A stretch of 57,067 nt of DNA, taken from contig JBDRFP010000012.1 in assembly GCA_043818555.1 (NCBI GenBank), positions 1 through 57,067 on the forward strand, read 5' to 3'. A program made the translations under genes and the position numbers. Positions 2,616 through 7,872 of this stretch are shown one piece after another. The notes beneath the pieces were generated by a model. That model was given only the letters and a program-made list of their open reading frames with translations, was not told where the DNA came from and made no database searches. Numbering within the stretch: position 1 is the first letter of the stretch; every line of letters begins with the position of its first letter. The stretch comes from a bacterium (GTDB lineage Bacteria > Patescibacteriota > Patescibacteriia > UBA9934).

Positions 2616-4796
2616 CTACAAGTCTTCAATATTCCTCAAAAACGACCCCGGAGCCTCCTTCTTTACCCGCTCGCCCAAATCATCAAGCACAATCGAGGGC
2701 TCATCATCCCAAAAAGTATCACCACTACTCAATCCAGAACTCGCCGATCCTGCCGATCCCCAGCCAGACCTCGCCGATCCCCAACCCCCTTTTCCTCCCT
2801 TCTCGTCCCTTATCGCCCCATATCCCACCAACCCTTGCCTCAACTGTACCAGCTCGCATTGGCCCTCTGGAATTTCGTCCAAAAATAGCGAAGGTTGCTT
2901 GATTTCCAGCGTATCGTGTCCGGCAGTGATTGGATAAGTTAAGTAGAGCTGGCGGCGAGCGCGAGTGGTTGCAACATAAAATAACCGACGCTCTTCCTCC
3001 AAACCGCCTTTTTCGTCATACGCCCGTCCGTGCGGGAAGTACCCGTCAGCCAAGTGCATTACAAACACATTATCCCACTCAAGTCCCTTGGCCTGATGAA
3101 CGGTCGACAACACCAAACGATCTTCGTCGTCGGCAGCAGTTTCCCGCACAGCTCCATACTCGTTCGTAAGACTCACCGCATCCAAAAACTCGCCCAAATC
3201 CTCAAACTGCTCTGCAAAAACCGCAAACTGTTCCAAGTCCTCCAGTCGCTCGTGATGGTTCGGATGCGTGTGCTCCAAATAAGCCTGGTAATCGTCACTT
3301 GCAGCCAGGGCGCGAATATAATACGACGGCACGCGCCTGTCCTTAAGGATGCATCGCAAAATTCTCATAAACCCATCCCAGCCGCTACGCGCGCCTGCTC
3401 CCATAGACACATCCAGCGCCAGTACATCATCGATATTTTCAATCTCCGAGCACGCTGCGGCGATCTTCACGGCTGTAACAATACCAATCCCGGGATGAAT
3501 TTTCAGCGCCCGCATCCATGCCATAGCGTCGCGAGGATTTTGAATCAGGCGGAGATGCGCCACCGTGTCCTTAACATGCGCGCGCTCAAAAAACTTCAGC
3601 CCTCCGCGGTATTCATATGGGATGTCCCTCTTCATTAGTTCAAACTCAAGCGCCTGCGAATGGAACGAGGCCCTGAAAAGCACAGCGATCTCACTCAGTG
3701 ATTTCCCCGATTCAATCAGAGAAGCAATTTGCTCGGCAATGTACTGTGCCTCCTGAGTTTGGTTAGCTGCCGGCACAAGGCACGGCGCCTCCCCTGGGCG
3801 CACAACAGCGATAAGGTCTTTTTTAAACTGATCCGTATTGTTTGCAATAACAGCATTTGCAACGCCTAAAATTTGCGGCGTTGACCTATAATTTGTTGTG
3901 AGTTTATACATCTTGGTTCCACCAAATCGGCTTGGAAATTCCAAAATATTGCGAACCTCAGCCGCACGGAATGAATATATGCTCTGAGCGTCGTCGCCAA
4001 CTACAAGTAGGTTTTTATGTTTTGACGAAAGTTGGCGCACAATTTCGGCCTGGATTACATTAGTGTCCTGAAACTCGTCAACTAAAACATATTGAAATTG
4101 TCGCGACAAATGATCGCGCACATCCCCGTGGTTTTGCAGCAGGTCGAGCAGGCGGAGCAATAAATCGTCAAAATCCATTGAATTTTGCTGACGTTTTTGG
4201 CCGTGATAGAGCTTTGCAACCTCGCCGATCTCGTCAATAAGCGGCAAAAACTTTGGATGCTTATTTTCGAGCGCGGCTTCAAGCGAACAATTTTTATTTG
4301 ATTGAAACGATATTATGCCGTGCAAAACGCCAGCACTTGGAAACCGTTTGCCCTTGGTGTCGATCTTTAGTTCTTTTACGCACAAGCTAACCAGTTCACG
4401 CGAATCTTCCTGGTCCAAGATCGAGAAGTTGGATTCATAGCCCAACTTGGCCGCATACTTTCTAAGAATCCTGTTCGCGATGCTATGAAAAGTCCCACCC
4501 CAAAGCCCTGCCGGGTACTGGCCAAGTAACATTTCGACCCTGCTGACCATTTCCTTCGCAGCCTTATTTGTAAAAGTGAGCAGGAGAATATTTTGAGGCT
4601 GGACTCCGTTTTCAAGCAGCCGAGCGACGCGATATGTGATTGTACGAGTTTTTCCAGATCCTGCGCCTGCCAAAACCAAACAAGGGCCGTCCCCGTTTTG
4701 AACAACATCGAGCTGGTCAGGATTAAGTTCGGCTTCGTAGTCGATTTTTAGATCGCGACCCTGCCCGGCGCCTTGTAGTATGAATTCCTTTGTCAT
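2616..4796 (-). CDS. UvrD/PcrA-family ATP-dependent DNA helicase
   Basis: LAGAGSGKT Walker A, TFTNKAA, VDEFQDTN, VGDDAQSIYSFR, NYRS, STVHQAKGLEW, EERRLFYVATTRA. Confidence 0.96.
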   Translation of the reverse strand: MTKEFILQGAGQGRDLKIDYEAELNPDQLDVVQNGDGPCLVLAGAGSGKTRTITYRVARLLENGVQPQNILLLTFTNKAAKEMVSRVEMLLGQYPAGLWGGTFHSIANRILRKYAAKLGYESNFSILDQEDSRELVSLCVKELKIDTKGKRFPSAGVLHGIISFQSNKNCSLEAALENKHPKFLPLIDEIGEVAKLYHGQKRQQNSMDFDDLLLRLLDLLQNHGDVRDHLSRQFQYVLVDEFQDTNVIQAEIVRQLSSKHKNLLVVGDDAQSIYSFRAAEVRNILEFPSRFGGTKMYKLTTNYRSTPQILGVANAVIANNTDQFKKDLIAVVRPGEAPCLVPAANQTQEAQYIAEQIASLIESGKSLSEIAVLFRASFHSQALEFELMKRDIPYEYRGGLKFFERAHVKDTVAHLRLIQNPRDAMAWMRALKIHPGIGIVTAVKIAAACSEIENIDDVLALDVSMGAGARSGWDGFMRILRCILKDRRVPSYYIRALAASDDYQAYLEHTHPNHHERLEDLEQFAVFAEQFEDLGEFLDAVSLTNEYGAVRETAADDEDRLVLSTVHQAKGLEWDNVFVMHLADGYFPHGRAYDEKGGLEEERRLFYVATTRARRQLYLTYPITAGHDTLEIKQPSLFLDEIPEGQCELVQLRQGLVGYGAIRDEKGGKGGWGSARSGWGSAGSASSGLSSGDTFWDDEPSIVLDDLGERVKKEAPGSFLRNIEDL

Positions 4797-4912
4797 GGTG
4801 GAGGCATTTTACCATACTTTCGATCCCCCTCCTTTTCAAGGAGGGGCTAGGGGTGGTTACCCGCCTATCGAATCTGCCCCGATCCGTAATCTTGATCCGT
4901 CTCGATCTCCCC

Positions 4913-5104
4913 AAAAGAAAAGACCCCCGCCGACCGAAATCGACGAGGGCTAGGAGGAATACTCAACCATGTCAGACAAGCGATTTCTCGCTAGCAGGAA
5001 TAGGCACCCATCATACCTGCTTGAGGACGCTCAAATGCTGCGTTATCGCGGTTCCCAACAGCCCGCGAATAGCCTGCACTCCACGCTATCCCTTACTCTC
5101 AAGC
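4913..5104 (-). ncRNA. Putative structured ncRNA, cassette 1 of 4
   Basis: TTGACA(5139-5134)-17-CACACT promoter. GCTTGAG/CTCAAGC, GCGT/ACGC and CGCGG/CCGCG stems, AGCGA-GAAA-TCGCT hairpin, GC hairpin plus U-tract terminator. Homologous to cassette 3. Confidence 0.65.
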
Positions 5105-5242
5105 AAAACTAGTGTGCCATATTGGTGGAAATTTGTCAAGGCTCAGCTGTAAAGCTAGCAAAAAAAACAGGGGTTCACAGTTCACCGACTTGCAACTTTG
5201 CACTTGCAACTTGCGACTTGTGCCTTTAAACTTTTGACTTTT

Positions 5243-5418
5243 AAAAAAATGACCCCCGCCGACCGAAATCGACGAGGGCTAGGAGTGCAAATGCTGTCTT
5301 CGCAATGCAAGAACCAAACGGTCGTGATGAACCGCTACCAGAGGCGCACAGATCCTCGCGAAGCGTTTCGGCACATTACGCCTGCCTAAGTTTCCGTACT
5401 GTCCTTTCGCTCCCTAGC
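5243..5418 (-). ncRNA. Putative structured ncRNA, cassette 2 of 4
   Basis: TTGACA(5453-5448)-17-TATATT. The 5' GCTAGGGAG can pair with CTCCTAGC just before the terminator. Terminator identical to cassette 1. Confidence 0.6.
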
Positions 5419-5447
5419 ATTGCCAATATACCAGTTTGTTGATGCTA

Positions 5448-5832
5448 TGTCAAGAAAGTGTTGGTTTCAATGGGGCTAGAGGGGCTAGATCTGTTAGCCC
5501 CGTTAGCTCCTAAGTAAACCACATGCAACTTTCTGACTTTCTTACTAAATAAAAAATGCCCCCGCCGACCGTCAACGGCAGGGGCAAGCAGGGACTGGCG
5601 TACCATGAAGCGCCTGCTTAAGGACACGGCGCACTGCGTTATCGAGCTCGCTTCCTACCTCGACCAGCCTATGCAACCACGCTGTCCCTTACTCTTAAGC
5701 GTTGGCATTATGCCAGATTATTGATGTTTTGTCAAGAAAGTGCTGGTTTCAATGGTTGCAACGGAGCTAGAGGGGCTAGATCTGTTAGCCCCGTTAGCTC
5801 CTAAGTAAACCACATGCAACTTTCTGACTTTC
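5448..5832. repeat. ~95-bp direct duplication (5448-5541 and 5730-5832) upstream of cassettes 2 and 3
   Basis: GCTAGAGGGGCTAGATCTGTTAGCCCCGTTAGCTCCTAAGTAAACCACATGCAACTTT occurs twice, each time abutting a -35 box. Confidence 0.9.
5551..5700 (-). ncRNA. Putative structured ncRNA, cassette 3 of 4
   Basis: TTGACA(5735-5730)-17-CATAAT. GCTTAAG/CTTAAGC is compensatory relative to cassette 1; also GGACA/TGTCC, CGAG/CTCG, AGCAGG/CCTGCT and a related terminator. Confidence 0.65.
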
Positions 5833-6083
5833 CGACTTTCGGCTTTAGGACTTTCCGATTCCTGACTAATATCAACCTGTTGCAGATTGTGGCCGATCGG
5901 TTAAAAAGTGCAACACTAGATAAGCAGTGCTTTCTAACTAACCCTCGCGAAATTTCAAATTTTTTTTTGTTTTGATGTGTACCCAAATTTAGCCGATCGG
6001 TTAAAAACAGGTACACATTTGAGTTGTGTTATGGGATTGGTACCGTAGCGCGCCGTGTTGAATGCTAGTGTTGAATACTAACG

Positions 6084-6325
6084 AAAAGAAAACACCCCCG
6101 CCGATACAAGATCAGCAGGGGTGAGACGAGGTCCCGACCAGAAATTCTCGATAGGGGTCAGGCCGATTTTTTCTCGGACCCTCTTGCCCTTCCCCCAACG
6201 CCACCCACGACTCCAGAGTCACGTGCCTCATGGGTGGAACGCCTACACGTCTCCGTAAGAGTCGTCGAGTTACCTGGAGCAAATAACCCTTCGACCTTAC
6301 GCCTGCCACCTGGTCAGGATTGACC
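6084..6325 (-). ncRNA. Putative structured ncRNA, cassette 4 of 4
   Basis: TTGACA(6359-6354)-17-TATAGT. Closing stem TCCTGACCAG/CTGGTCGGGA around three internal hairpins; related terminator plus U-tract. Confidence 0.6.
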
Positions 6326-6519
6326 GGAATACTATAACATATTTCCGCACTTTTGTCAAGCCCTGAGGGCAAAAAGCGCCAAAAAACAGGCGTTTTGGCC
6401 TGTTTGCAGTCGTTAAAATCGTTAAATCGTTCGCTACGCTCACTCGTTAAAGTCGTTAATTCAATCGGCTTTAACGCTTTTAACAAGGCCGTCAGGCCGA
6501 TTTAACATCTTGAACGATG

Positions 6520-7872
6520 CTAAACCACCAACGGCAAATCGTGAATCGTATTCGGTCTTCCCATTAAAACGTCAGCAATTCGATACGCGCCGTGCGTAGG
6601 AGCCTCAATGAACCCGTTCCACGCCTTGCGCGCCAAAGCGCCGGAGTTAATCCAGTCAAACAGCCACTCGTTCGCATAACGAGGATCGAGCTGGTCGATT
6701 CCACCGCCGACTTGCTCCAACCACTTATGGTTAAAGCCCTCTTGCGACCCTACAGTCGGCGCCATAATAATCGGAATGCCCAAACCCGTGTAGAACGAAA
6801 GCTCGCTCGGTTTTGTCCACAAAATGTCGATTTTACGCATCAGCTTGGTAAACTCATCAAAATACTTTGGCCGGTTTTCCTCAAACATAATGTTCAGGTT
6901 GCCTTTTTTGATTTCGTTCGTGAGCCCTGCTCTGTGCGACTCTTCGATAAAATACTCAGCAACCTCAGGTCGAGTGCCAGCGACCAAATGTAGAATGATC
7001 TTGCCCTGCTTAATTTCGCGCTCCAAGCTTTTCGCAATGACAGCTCCAATTTCGCGCTGAGCTCCGGCGCCTCCAACGACAAACGCCAGATTAATAGGCT
7101 TTGGCTTTGTCGATCTGATAGTTTTGCAATACTCAGGGCCAAGATGATTTGTTAACGCCTGCCCGGTGTGAGCCACAAAAATGCCGTTCGGGTCCAGGTT
7201 GCAAATGCGACGCTGCATGTCGGAAATGGCAACCTTAGCATCAAGCCCGCCCACAGCCTCGGTTGGCAAAGGAAATCCGGTCAGTTCAATGTTTTTCGCC
7301 GACACGCCGTAGAGCTTAAGCCGCTCGACAACTCGGCCGTTCGGTGCAAAATATCTGATCCTTGATTTGCGCGGCTCTAGCGGAACCCAAGCTCGGCTCA
7401 TGTCAGCGTCGGTCACAAGCGAAAAAATCTCACCTGGGTAGCCAAACTCCTCTGCAGCAAACGCAGGCGACATAAAGGTGCACACAAGCGGCTTAGGATC
7501 CTTCGCAAGGCTTTCAATTAAGTGCCGCATGTGATTACGGTAGCGAATCAAAAAGTACATTTCGCGGACCTGAAGACTTGGGGCTGATAAATCGCGGCGA
7601 GGGTAAAAATCAGGAATGCGCTGCAGTTCATCCATTAACCCAAAAACCGCGCGCCCAAGCAGGGGTACTTTTTTAAATCGAGAAATCTTCTCGTAAATTT
7701 TACGCCCGCCTTCCCACAGCCTGCGGTCACTGTCAGGGATGCCGTCGTAGTCGTTGGCGATTATGACTTTGCCGCCGGCGAACTTGCGAAGAACGTGCGC
7801 AGGGCGTTCGTGCCCATAGCCCATATCCACCGCTACGACATGGGCGATATTTTTATATCCTCCTTTAGACAT
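6520..7872 (-). CDS. Glycosyltransferase-like protein (GT-B, MGDG synthase/MurG-like)
   Basis: N-terminal VDMGYGH, VTDAD, TGFPL, GGAGAQ, DILWTKPSEL, GSQE motifs. Confidence 0.65.
   Translation of the reverse strand: MSKGGYKNIAHVVAVDMGYGHERPAHVLRKFAGGKVIIANDYDGIPDSDRRLWEGGRKIYEKISRFKKVPLLGRAVFGLMDELQRIPDFYPRRDLSAPSLQVREMYFLIRYRNHMRHLIESLAKDPKPLVCTFMSPAFAAEEFGYPGEIFSLVTDADMSRAWVPLEPRKSRIRYFAPNGRVVERLKLYGVSAKNIELTGFPLPTEAVGGLDAKVAISDMQRRICNLDPNGIFVAHTGQALTNHLGPEYCKTIRSTKPKPINLAFVVGGAGAQREIGAVIAKSLEREIKQGKIILHLVAGTRPEVAEYFIEESHRAGLTNEIKKGNLNIMFEENRPKYFDEFTKLMRKIDILWTKPSELSFYTGLGIPIIMAPTVGSQEGFNHKWLEQVGGGIDQLDPRYANEWLFDWINSGALARKAWNGFIEAPTHGAYRIADVLMGRPNTIHDLPLVV

Follow-up and report, generated by a model that had tools for sequence, protein, structure and literature searches.

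What does a tiny groundwater bacterium with a genome of 1.0 Mb keep in a 1.6-kb gap between two genes? The window analysed here, the whole stretch of 57,067 nt from contig JBDRFP010000012.1, contains such a gap upstream of uvrD. The original prediction, made from the sequence letters, saw in it a duplicated, diversifying family of independently transcribed, structured RNAs that it did not recognise. We analysed the promoters, terminators, coding potential, folds and relatives of these units, and weigh below what kind of RNA they may be.

Four co-oriented units occupy the gap upstream of uvrD

The gap accommodates four co-oriented units on the minus strand (window 4915-6360), which are read in the order U4, U3, U2, U1 and are followed by uvrD. 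Each unit consists of a TTGACA box, a 17-nt spacer, a TG-extended −10 box, a body of 151-241 nt and a strong intrinsic terminator. All features claimed for the four promoter-body-terminator units were found in the sequence, as listed here.

2616..4796, minus strand: uvrD, 726 aa, flanking gene
4811..4839, minus strand: promoter-like site of uvrD with a TATGGTAAAAT box (promoter scan), array boundary
4915..5104, minus strand: predicted U1 RNA, about 190 nt (repeat analysis, alignment, folding)
4923..4950, minus strand: U1 intrinsic terminator, 12 pairs (terminator scan)
5111..5139, minus strand: U1 promoter, TTGACA, 17 nt, CACACT, TG before −10; weak −10 box, 3/6
5245..5418, minus strand: predicted U2 RNA, about 174 nt; potential pairing of 5′ GCUAGGGAG with 3′ CUCCUAGC, which immediately precedes the terminator
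5252..5279, minus strand: U2 intrinsic terminator, 12 pairs, same stem as U1 (terminator scan, repeat analysis)
5425..5453, minus strand: U2 promoter, TTGACA, 17 nt, TATATT, TG; 11/12 match
5462..5546, minus strand: U2 upstream module, twin of 5753-5837 (repeat analysis)
5550..5700, minus strand: predicted U3 RNA, about 151 nt, 5′ domain homologous to that of U1
5557..5586, minus strand: U3 intrinsic terminator, 11 pairs (terminator scan)
5707..5735, minus strand: U3 promoter, TTGACA, 17 nt, CATAAT, TG; 11/12 match
5753..5837, minus strand: U3 upstream module, 85 nt, 94% identical to that of U2, palindrome GGAGCTA..GGGGCTA..TAGCCCC..TAGCTCC
5880..5925, no strand assigned: hairpin repeat, copy 2, same loop as copy 1 on another stem (repeat analysis)
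5975..6018, no strand assigned: hairpin repeat, copy 1, loop TTTTTAACCGATCGGC, in the 350-nt U4-U3 spacer (repeat analysis)
6085..6325, minus strand: predicted U4 RNA, about 241 nt; fold with a closing stem around four hairpins, then the terminator
6093..6123, minus strand: U4 intrinsic terminator, 13 pairs, then TTTTCTTTTC (terminator scan)
6331..6359, minus strand: U4 promoter, TTGACA, 17 nt, TATAGT, TG before −10; 11/12 match
6378..6399, minus strand: terminator of the upstream DUF6938 gene (terminator scan), array boundary
6520..7872, minus strand: DUF6938 protein, 450 aa, weak GT-B-like similarity (Pfam), flanking gene

The upstream neighbour had been called a glycosyltransferase; a weak likeness to that class exists (E about 1e-3), but the Pfam assignment is DUF6938. 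At the other boundary, the end of the U1 terminator lies about 75 nt from the promoter-like site of uvrD, whose TATGGTAAAAT box also precedes uvrD in a genome of the same genus. Similar boxes (TATGGTAAAAT, TATGATAAAAT) are found upstream of uvrD in two further relatives. In 28 of the 28 relatives from other genera examined, uvrD is directly preceded by coding sequence, and the same-genus contig, which ends 205 nt upstream of uvrD, carries no unit on that stretch. On this comparison the array is inserted between two genes that lie side by side in relatives.

GC content is 0.55-0.61 in the bodies compared with 0.34-0.46 in the spacers, which are built of repeat families present elsewhere in the genome. 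Related copies of the TTTTTAACCGATCGGC-loop hairpin occur on contig C2 (upstream of ligA) and on contig C31. A metagenome contig of low depth joins position 5475 to 5765, within the 85-nt repeat; it comes from two groundwater DNA runs in which the organism is present as low-depth fragments only, and the joint may be a mis-join induced by the repeat or a sign of copy-number variation.

Promoters and terminators

A TTGACA box, exactly 17 bp and a TG-extended −10 box had been claimed for every unit, and three of the promoters bear this out with 11 of 12 matching positions. The fourth, that of U1 with its weak −10 box, was missed by the promoter scan and was found with a stricter regular-expression pattern. 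The scanned region contains 7 promoter-like sites versus 1.6 ± 1.2 in shuffles. The stricter pattern has 93 sites genome-wide (both strands), four of them inside the 1.45 kb of the array, where the chance expectation computed from the genome-wide count is 0.07. One copy of the format TTGACA-N14-TGnTAnnnT precedes the RNase P RNA match on contig C19 by about 48 nt, and the TTGACA-17-TG-extended arrangement is the normal promoter type of this genome. The promoter scan found no strong plus-strand (antisense) promoter in the region.

The 5′ ends of U1-U3 are related as originally quoted, with a conserved GCU that begins 7 nt past the −10 hexamer. Sequence conservation of the units begins at the predicted +1, and together with genome-type promoters and strong terminators this is consistent, in silico, with the proposal that the units are independently transcribed.

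All four terminators end in CGGCGGGGG plus a T-tract, and the stems of U1 and U2 are identical, in agreement with the earlier description. CGGCGGGGG with TTTT 0-4 nt downstream has four matches in the whole genome, all of them in the array. CTCCTAG followed by CCC within 0-2 nt occurs at only three genome sites (U1, U2 and C26:11815), each directly preceding a related terminator; the site on contig C26 belongs to a fifth unit that carries CUCCUAG and a related terminator as U1 and U2 do. When the C26 unit was compared with 100 relatives by BLAST, nothing above noise appeared. In 200 relatives, TCGGCGGGGGNNNTTT has 22 matches in 17 genomes, all in ordinary gene terminators, coding sequence or an unrelated repeat. 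A search of the same number of relatives for CCCTCGTCGATTTCGG with at most one mismatch returned a single exact outside match, in genome G023 (see below), and seven one-mismatch matches, six in coding sequence and one in an ordinary terminator.

The units form a mosaic of modules

U1 and U3 have a common 115-nt 5′ domain with 80% identity (U1 5104-4990; U3 5700-5586) and a single difference in the first 24 nt. With U2, in turn, U1 agrees in its final 43 nt (4956-4914; 95% identity). Repeat analysis confirmed that U2 and U4 have GGCAGGCGTAA in common. When the bodies were aligned without their terminators, U1-U3 was the only significant pair (z 16.5); U2-U4 was weak (z 2.4) and the remaining four pairs were at noise level. 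The units are thus a mosaic of shared modules, not four copies of one RNA. Their bodies fall into three types or more, namely U1/U3, U2 and U4; the U4 body is unrelated to the rest, and U1 is a chimera of a U3-like 5′ domain and a U2-like last 43 nt. The notion of a duplicated, diversifying family is only partly right: promoter, 5′-end and terminator modules are shared, but the units are not related as wholes.

Coding potential and folds

The ORFs of at least 12 codons all differ between units, and no hydrophobic or toxin-like peptide and no conserved Shine-Dalgarno sequence were found among the unit ORFs. The equivalent GTG frame runs for 13 codons in U1 but for 3 in U3, as the original prediction stated, and the U1-U3 alignment contains indels of 1-3 nt. 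The units are most likely non-coding.

The U4 fold (MFE −106.9 kcal/mol, z −3.73) was equalled by 0 of 200 shuffles. The folds of U1-U3 are not significantly above shuffles (z −1.3 to −1.8; 12-23 of 200 shuffles as good), and the MFE fold of U2 closes its 5′ and 3′ ends together. The consensus fold of U1 and U3 has 30 pairs, with 96.6% of cells paired, and five pairs changed on both sides, a number equalled in 7 of 500 shuffles. As a control, partners were slid by 1-3 columns, upon which 28-45% of cells pair and no both-side changes occur. In a three-way alignment, P1 is kept in U2 via further swaps (UA/UA/AU and GC/AU/GC). U1 and U3 thus seem, in silico, to keep one fold through compensatory changes, with support from one paralogue pair of two sequences because the searches recovered no orthologues of the units. 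Part of the conserved 5′ end is base-paired in this fold, and a purine-rich bulge (AGAGUAA/GGGA) lies within the first 24 nt of both RNAs.

Searches for relatives and known families

A BLAST search of 60 relatives with the whole array returned matches of 21-48 nt only, on promoters, spacers or terminators; one of them, in genome G054, lies within a coding gene and was set aside as chance. U4, searched against 100 relatives, gave only noise. The covariance model R1 (U1 and U3), run on this genome and 100 relatives, recovers its own two sequences and misses even U2, and model R2 (U4) returned one match at E 0.2 and nothing else from 40 relatives. Patterns derived from the 5′ motif gave four matches in a genome contig collection, in unrelated phyla and attributed to chance, and for a related pattern one match in metagenome contigs, in a high-GC coding region. 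Two patterns yielded three matches in viral contigs, none of which fits model R1. Searches of phage and plasmid collections with blastn gave no match. On these searches the array is apparently lineage-specific, with no homologue of the bodies in 100-200 related genomes or in the metagenome, phage and plasmid collections. Such lineage-specific turnover is usual among trans-acting small RNAs (sRNAs).

The bodies had been described as structured and unrecognised, and both points agree with our results: the U1/U3 fold is kept by compensatory changes, and the Rfam scan assigns no family. At gathering thresholds, Rfam 15 matches four tRNAs in the whole window and nothing in the array. At E up to 10 in 4800-6520, the best matches are Hrs1 (21.9 bits; gathering 56.4) and NsiR1 (RF02399, 21.8 bits; gathering 39), both below threshold and both on a terminator hairpin. 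The best-scoring Rfam family on the region is NsiR1, whose match is limited to the terminator hairpins of U3 (E 0.18) and U4 (15.8 bits, E 5.7). NsiR1 forms a head-to-tail sRNA array in cyanobacteria, with a promoter and a terminator on each repeat. It differs from the units in its length of about 60 nt and in its body, to which theirs are unrelated.

Several known classes were considered and rejected. 6S RNA (RF00013) is unmatched in the genome at E up to 10, and the folds of U1-U4 are not 6S-shaped. SRP RNA was considered because none is detectable in the genome; RF00169 and RF01854 are unmatched, the array has no domain IV-like motif, and the units are not conserved in relatives. Riboswitch or attenuator leaders do not fit a layout in which U4, U3 and U2 each end in a terminator followed by the next promoter, and the promoter-like site of uvrD itself comes after U1. 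A CsrB/RsmZ-type sponge was rejected since the genome has no match to CsrA (PF02599), and U1, with about 3 GGA in its 190 nt, is close to what chance would give. Hfq (PF17209) is likewise unmatched in the genome (96.6% complete), in a search whose control matched in five genomes.

Complements of the conserved motifs in the genome are scattered and 11-17 nt long, at about chance level; the single perfect 16-mer complement pairs U3 with contig C27 (E 0.028 for that query alone). A search for the 16S gene, for anti-Shine-Dalgarno comparison, did not find it in the assembly.

Tandem orphan RNA units in a sister genus

Upstream of queA in two genomes of the sister genus g11 (G011:C27 and G023:C44) lie two tandem orphan promoter-RNA-terminator units, 84% identical between the two species and with conserved helices. 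They have no Rfam match and are, as far as searches show, undescribed. They resemble the array in belonging to the same bacterial family and in having a TTGACA-17 nt-TG-extended −10 promoter, a structured RNA, an intrinsic terminator and a tandem arrangement of two. The terminator of the first G023 unit also contains the exact 16-mer CCCTCGTCGATTTCGG (arm plus loop) of U1 and U2. In contrast, their bodies (about 457 and 298 nt) have no similarity to U1-U4, the locus is another one, and the terminator of the G011 orthologue differs from that of G023. The 16-mer match may be due to chance, with about 0.09 exact 16-mer matches expected over 200 genomes. Such arrays therefore recur in the family, as the pair in the sister genus is unrelated to the units described here.

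What the units may be

We regard it as roughly an even call that the array is a lineage-specific cluster of sibling regulatory sRNAs, built by duplication and module exchange in the manner of OmrA/OmrB. According to PMC4211561, OmrA/OmrB, PrrF1/2, AbcR1/2 and the csRNAs are adjacent, co-oriented, ORF-less intergenic sRNA genes, each with its own promoter and terminator; siblings have a near-identical 5′ end and 3′ terminator part with a divergent middle and are thought to originate through gene duplication, and the csRNA cluster adjoins a DNA helicase gene, ruvB. The units described here likewise have a predicted orphan promoter and Rho-independent terminator placed 50-300 nt apart in intergenic DNA, no conserved ORF, and paralogues whose end modules are conserved (24 nt at the 5′ end of U1/U3, 43 nt at the 3′ end of U1/U2) while their middles diverge. 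They have no sequence or Rfam relationship to these known siblings, and they number four, with three or more body types and shuffled modules instead of two close copies. At 151-241 nt, compared with 82-88 nt, they are two to three times longer and multi-helical, which is long and highly structured for base-pairing sRNAs and counts against the sibling reading. So do the weak −10 box of U1, the shuffle-like folds of U1-U3, the structural support from a single paralogue pair, the negative searches for Hfq and CsrA, motif complements at chance level from which no target emerged, and the partly paired 5′ end.

Under the sibling-sRNA model, the gap would hold four independently transcribed small non-coding RNA genes, and the cluster would have expanded at this locus through tandem duplication and through the swapping of upstream regions, promoters, 5′ ends, bodies and the 3′ CUCCUAG-plus-terminator piece between units. 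We infer that the RNAs would act in trans as Hfq-independent base-pairing regulators whose working parts, as in OmrA/OmrB, are the segments near-identical between siblings. One candidate is the stretch of 24 nt with the bulge at the start of U1 and U3; the other is CUCCUAG, a C-rich motif resembling an anti-Shine-Dalgarno sequence, which immediately precedes the terminator in U1, U2 and the C26 unit. Individual targets or regulation would come from the middles, in which the siblings diverge. U4 would be a separate, more elaborately folded RNA with only promoter and terminator format in common with the others.

The units could instead work through their folds, as protein-binding decoys or scaffolds, guides or ribozymes, with the CUCCUAG-terminator as a protein handle and the bodies providing specificity. 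The multi-helix fold of U4, the compensatory changes in U1/U3, the GC-rich bodies of 150-240 nt, a 3′ module that stays constant across otherwise unrelated bodies (U1, U2, C26 unit) and an exact terminator 16-mer at the end of an unrelated orphan RNA in G023 all point in this direction. We nevertheless think it unlikely: no Rfam family is matched even at E up to 10, ribozymes and scaffold RNAs are usually conserved past the species level whereas nothing was found in 100-200 relatives, no partner gene adjoins the array, and its flanks are syntenic housekeeping genes that are array-free in relatives. The G023 match may be fortuitous, and the G011 orthologue ends differently. The originally suggested protein sponge finds neither a CsrA nor an Hfq gene in the genome, and a ribozyme or guide-like RNA has against it the missing Rfam match and the lack of conservation outside the genome. 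A related and more doubtful idea, which we rate as improbable, takes the units as fast-evolving cassette arrays in which a fixed chassis (consensus promoter, short 5′ motif, CUCCUAG-plus-terminator handle) carries interchangeable, recombining bodies as specificity elements in conflict or host interaction, not as housekeeping regulators. The handle may be common across genera (U1/U2 and the C26 unit here, and G023), and such RNAs would be, for example, decoys or guides of an episymbiont against its host or phages.

That the array is selectively neutral repeat DNA, in which a promoter-terminator module from intergenic repeats was duplicated and drifted, with functionless transcripts if any, would fit its absence from all relatives examined, its repeat-derived spacers, the contig joint with its possible copy-number variation or mis-join, and folds of U1-U3 no better than shuffles. 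Such DNA would hardly be expected, however, to persist over 1.6 kb in a streamlined genome with four of four promoters retaining a perfect −35 box, exact 17-nt spacing and TG, four of four terminators intact, U1 and U3 differing only once over their first 24 nt, and almost complete pairing of these two despite 80% identity, with five double changes; we consider this origin rather improbable. The co-orientation of the array directly upstream of uvrD, with the last terminator close before its promoter-like site, would fit a role in cis, as stacked transcriptional insulators or attenuators through which read-through or interference sets helicase expression. In the modelled fold of U3, AAGC could moreover pair either with the 5′ GCUU or with the terminator-adjacent 3′ GCUU. 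The units, though, are each equipped with a strong promoter and a strong terminator, U2-U4 each lead into another promoter and not a gene, and uvrD has its own promoter box, the same as or similar to those of three relatives without the array there, so that we judge action on uvrD very improbable. Tandem, independently transcribed, strongly folded RNAs of 150-250 nt are also known from the ibs/sib, ldr/rdl and aapA/isoA arrays, and this likeness and the 5′-3′ end pairing of U2 recall type I toxin-antitoxin modules or small proteins. This is the least credible reading and is largely refuted, as the units have no ORF in common (the GTG frame ends early in U3), no hydrophobic or membrane-like peptide, no Shine-Dalgarno sequence at their starts and no strong plus-strand promoter for an antisense RNA.

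Implications

Tandem sRNA genes are a familiar kind of arrangement that is hardly described in this bacterial group. Small regulatory RNAs seem to be hardly studied in Patescibacteria (CPR): the top literature matches include no sRNA study in these bacteria, which is not proof of absence. That a 1.0 Mb genome devotes 1.6 kb to four orphan RNA genes, and has one or more besides at other places, suggests that regulation by RNA is important to these reduced cells, and the unrelated tandem pair of the sister genus likewise points that way. No Hfq or CsrA gene was found in this genome, and its set of RNAs seems to change fast. The module mosaic offers a clean natural example of sibling sRNA diversification, and the four units with their promoter and terminator format provide concrete probes for groundwater metatranscriptomes.

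Promoters and terminators of the array

Window positions 4700-6600 contain four co-oriented units on the minus strand, flanked by a 450-aa gene and uvrD. We retain the numbering of the original prediction, in which U4 is the most upstream unit on the minus strand and U1 adjoins uvrD.

7872-6520, minus: 450-aa gene with Pfam domain DUF6938; its likeness to glycosyltransferases is weak
6359-6331, minus: U4 promoter; RNA 6325-6085 (241 nt); terminator 6123-6093
5735-5707, minus: U3 promoter; RNA 5700-5550 (151 nt); terminator 5586-5557
5453-5425, minus: U2 promoter; RNA 5418-5245 (174 nt); terminator 5279-5252
5139-5111, minus: U1 promoter; RNA 5104-4915 (190 nt); terminator 4950-4923
4796-2616, minus: uvrD, on the opposite flank of the array

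Three array promoters score 11/12, each with boxes 17 nt apart and a TG ahead of the -10 box. The U1 promoter, picked up by regular expression only, has the TG, the 17-nt spacing and a perfect -35 box, but its -10 box is weak (CACACT). Promoter-like sites number 7 across the region (1.6 +/- 1.2 in shuffles) and terminator-like sites 10 (3.0 +/- 1.7 in shuffles); the four strongest of the latter, at 11-13 pairs, are those of the units. A search of both strands of the 1,005,933-base genome for TTGACA-N14-TGnNAnnnT returned 93 matches, 4 of them inside the array's 1.45 kb, where 0.07 would be expected by chance (arithmetic from the genome count). The searched motif is the ordinary promoter format of this organism; on contig C19 one copy precedes the RNase P RNA match by ~48 nt. 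All four genomic occurrences of CGGCGGGGG followed by TTTT within 0-4 nt fall in the array. In U1, U2 and U3 the common GCU begins exactly 7 nt past the -10 hexamer, which places the onset of conservation at the predicted +1. The GC content is 0.55-0.61 in the RNA bodies and 0.34-0.46 in the spacers between units (genome average 0.485). The four units described in the original prediction are real features of the sequence, and were well described.

Relations between units

Rather than being four copies, the units form a mosaic. When their final 42 nt are left off, the bodies of U1 and U3 form the sole significant pair (score 65, z 16.5, 0/300 shuffles), U2 and U4 align weakly (z 2.4, 7/300) through a common GGCAGGCGTAA, and the remaining four pairs are at noise level. 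The idea of a duplicated, diversifying family is borne out only in part, with modules shared piecewise. U1 and U2 are 95% identical over their last 43 nt, an 85-nt module ahead of the promoter is 94% identical between U2 and U3, and U1 and U3 have the promoter-proximal region and 5′ end in common. U1 is therefore chimeric, joining a U3-like 5′ domain to a U2-like 3′ end.

Low-complexity intergenic repeats of two kinds, the AAGTCnnAAAGT-type and the GGGCTAG-type, make up the spacers; they recur upstream of promoters across the genome carrying the window (G000) and also in the same-genus genome. The spacers also hold copies of a hairpin family with differing stems and a conserved, near-palindromic loop, TTTT[A/G][A/C]CCGATCGGCC. 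This family could serve as an operator or represent a small repeat element, and the two places where it is multi-copy are upstream of genes for DNA repair or replication (uvrD, ligA).

Window 5173-5241 and 5819-5858, G000:C2:50625-50694: intergenic low-complexity repeats; GCTAG-rich copies on contigs C2, C17, C23 and C35
Window 5975-6018 and 5880-5925 (array spacer), G000:C2:22536-22663 (two, upstream of ligA), C31:962 (one): loop-hairpin copies

Predicted folds

The 5′ domains of U1 and U3 (115 nt) are 80% identical. Their consensus fold consists of P1 (GCUUG/CAAGC), a 7-nt purine-rich bulge (AGAGUAA), a long irregular hairpin-ended helix and a short hairpin, with 96.6% of cells paired and both sides changed in 5 of 30 pairs. 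Column shuffles matched these values in 7/500 cases, and sliding the partners by 1-3 columns left 28-45% pairing and zero double changes. Support for this predicted fold is modest, because just two sequences are compared and they are also the ones that yielded the structure. A three-way MAFFT alignment of U1, U2 and U3 is noisy, with P1 maintained in U2 through further swaps; in an alternative predicted fold of U2, the 5′ GCUAGGGAG can pair with the 3′ CUCCUAGC. Single-sequence folds of U1, U2 and U3 are not significantly stabler than shuffles (z -1.28, -1.58 and -1.78). The U4 fold, predicted as four hairpins enclosed by a closing stem, is (-106.9 kcal/mol, z -3.73, 0/200).

Known RNA families and other orphan units

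The proposed comparison with Rfam was carried out (Rfam 15, gathering thresholds) and yielded no window match beyond four tRNAs elsewhere; with E up to 10 on the array region alone, only sub-threshold matches on terminator hairpins appeared. The models for 6S RNA and for small and large SRP RNA match nothing in the G000 genome, in which neither a CsrA nor an Hfq gene was found. The more exotic functions originally suggested (sponge, guide or ribozyme) are without support.

We detected no SRP pathway in G000 or 30 relatives of the same order. RF00169 gave nothing in 31/31 genomes at E <= 0.01, near-complete genomes of 1-4 contigs included, and the Pfam SRP_SPB (Ffh M domain) and SRP54 GTPase (Ffh/FtsY) domains have no match in G000; across the 31 genomes SRP54 gave 5 weak matches only (18.7-22.6 bits, frames of 330-851 aa). 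Controls were positive in 12-14 of 14 reference genomes. This could reflect real loss or extreme divergence; no paper on a missing SRP in these bacteria was among the top literature matches.

A fifth unit on the minus strand of another contig (G000:C26:12016-11784) has its own consensus promoter, a ~200-nt body unrelated to the others, and a 3′ end with an CCUCCUAG box and terminator related to those of U1, U2 and U4. CTCCTAG followed by CCC within 0-2 nt occurs three times in the genome, each directly 5′ of a terminator (U1, U2 and C26). No homologue of the C26 unit was found in 100 relatives. Further promoter-to-terminator units lacking a long ORF lie at C5:25270(-), C15:4333(+), C23:20085(+), C28:18414(-), C37:2420(-) and window 9375(+). 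In the C23 unit, a tRNA of low score (36.5 bits) and with an unusual anticodon loop comes first, and then a ~220-nt structured RNA with no Rfam match; a Cys-rich peptide of 57 aa may be encoded by the unit at window 9375(+).

Distribution of the array

Relatives of the DUF6938 gene are found in Patescibacteria MAGs (Uhrbacteria, Kerfeldbacteria, Veblenbacteria, Parcubacteria group). The region upstream of uvrD is coding in 28/28 other-genus relatives examined, often with a DUF6938-sized ORF in the same orientation, and their gaps (0-230 nt) contain no unit terminator and no array promoter. In three relatives the gap shows a promoter box for uvrD, either TATGGTAAAAT or the similar TATGATAAAAT. 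Because the upstream regions are coding and the gaps free of units, the array is a lineage-specific insertion in G000 (1.0 Mb, 96.6% complete). In the single same-genus genome the contig breaks 205 nt upstream of uvrD, with no unit in those 205 nt. Homologues of the bodies were found neither by BLAST or covariance models, nor by patterns in genome, metagenome and viral collections, nor by blastn in phages or plasmids. Fragments identical to the window occur at low depth in two groundwater DNA runs. One contig from them, of 258 nt, connects 5475 to 5765 within the 85-nt repeat, a joint that could reflect variation in copy number or an artefact of assembly.

The terminator 16-mer CCCTCGTCGATTTCGG has a single exact outside match among 200 relatives searched (G023:C44:326-341), in a genome of the sister genus g11; seven one-mismatch matches lie in coding sequence or an ordinary terminator, and a reversed-pattern control gave 2 matches. 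With an estimated ~0.09 exact matches expected, the likeness may be chance. The match is the end of a long orphan RNA, followed by TTGACA, 17 nt, TGgTGTAAT, a second RNA of ~300 nt with its own terminator, and queA. The orthologue in G011, of the same genus, is 84% identical, with a consensus promoter (TTGACA-17-TGtTATAGT), a first RNA of ~457 nt and a differing terminator.

L152 (G011:C27) and L014/L154 (G023:C44, C108): two tandem orphan RNA genes, ~457 and 298 nt, bearing terminators and consensus promoters, upstream of queA

Helices are conserved between the two genomes, with differences concentrated in linkers and 4/105 pairs compensatory. These RNAs have no Rfam match and their bodies no relation to U1-U4; they are a candidate for a new structured RNA in genus g11. 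The parallel does show that tandem orphan RNA genes built like the array recur within the family, their sequences differing from lineage to lineage. In another relative, G153 (loci L121, L130), a ~65-nt repeat ending in TCGGCGGGGGAATTTT, with at least 4 copies on 3 contigs, looks like a small terminator-bearing repeat element.

Interpretation

A listing of all ORFs of at least 12 codons on both strands of each unit gave none common to different units, none hydrophobic, and no Shine-Dalgarno site at their starts. The GTG frame noted originally does run for 13 codons in U1 and 3 in U3, which differ by several indels of 1-3 nt. Peptide or toxin genes are a less likely explanation of the array, as are neutral repeat DNA and cis control of uvrD; the view that each unit is transcribed independently into a non-coding RNA is sound, though unproven.

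We favour, at about even odds, a reading of the array as sibling trans-acting sRNAs, since it bears their signature: intergenic orphan consensus promoters and intrinsic terminators bound RNAs of 150-240 nt with no ORF, the paralogues keep their ends and vary their middles, and turnover is rapid and lineage-specific. By analogy with known siblings, the candidate working parts would be the initial 24 nt of both U1 and U3, together with the CUCCUAG box; crude complement searches gave no convincing target for them, and the 16S 3′ end for comparison with CUCCUAG is absent from the G000 assembly. The main rival is a role that depends on the fold, such as a protein scaffold or decoy, which would fit the RNA length, the U4 fold and the common 3′ handle, but finds neither conservation nor a partner gene beside it. 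As sibling sRNAs, the array is an orphan example of an already known kind of arrangement. No sRNA study in Patescibacteria was among the top literature matches; the array is of note in that sRNAs seem hardly studied in this phylum and its mosaic of modules is unusually clear.
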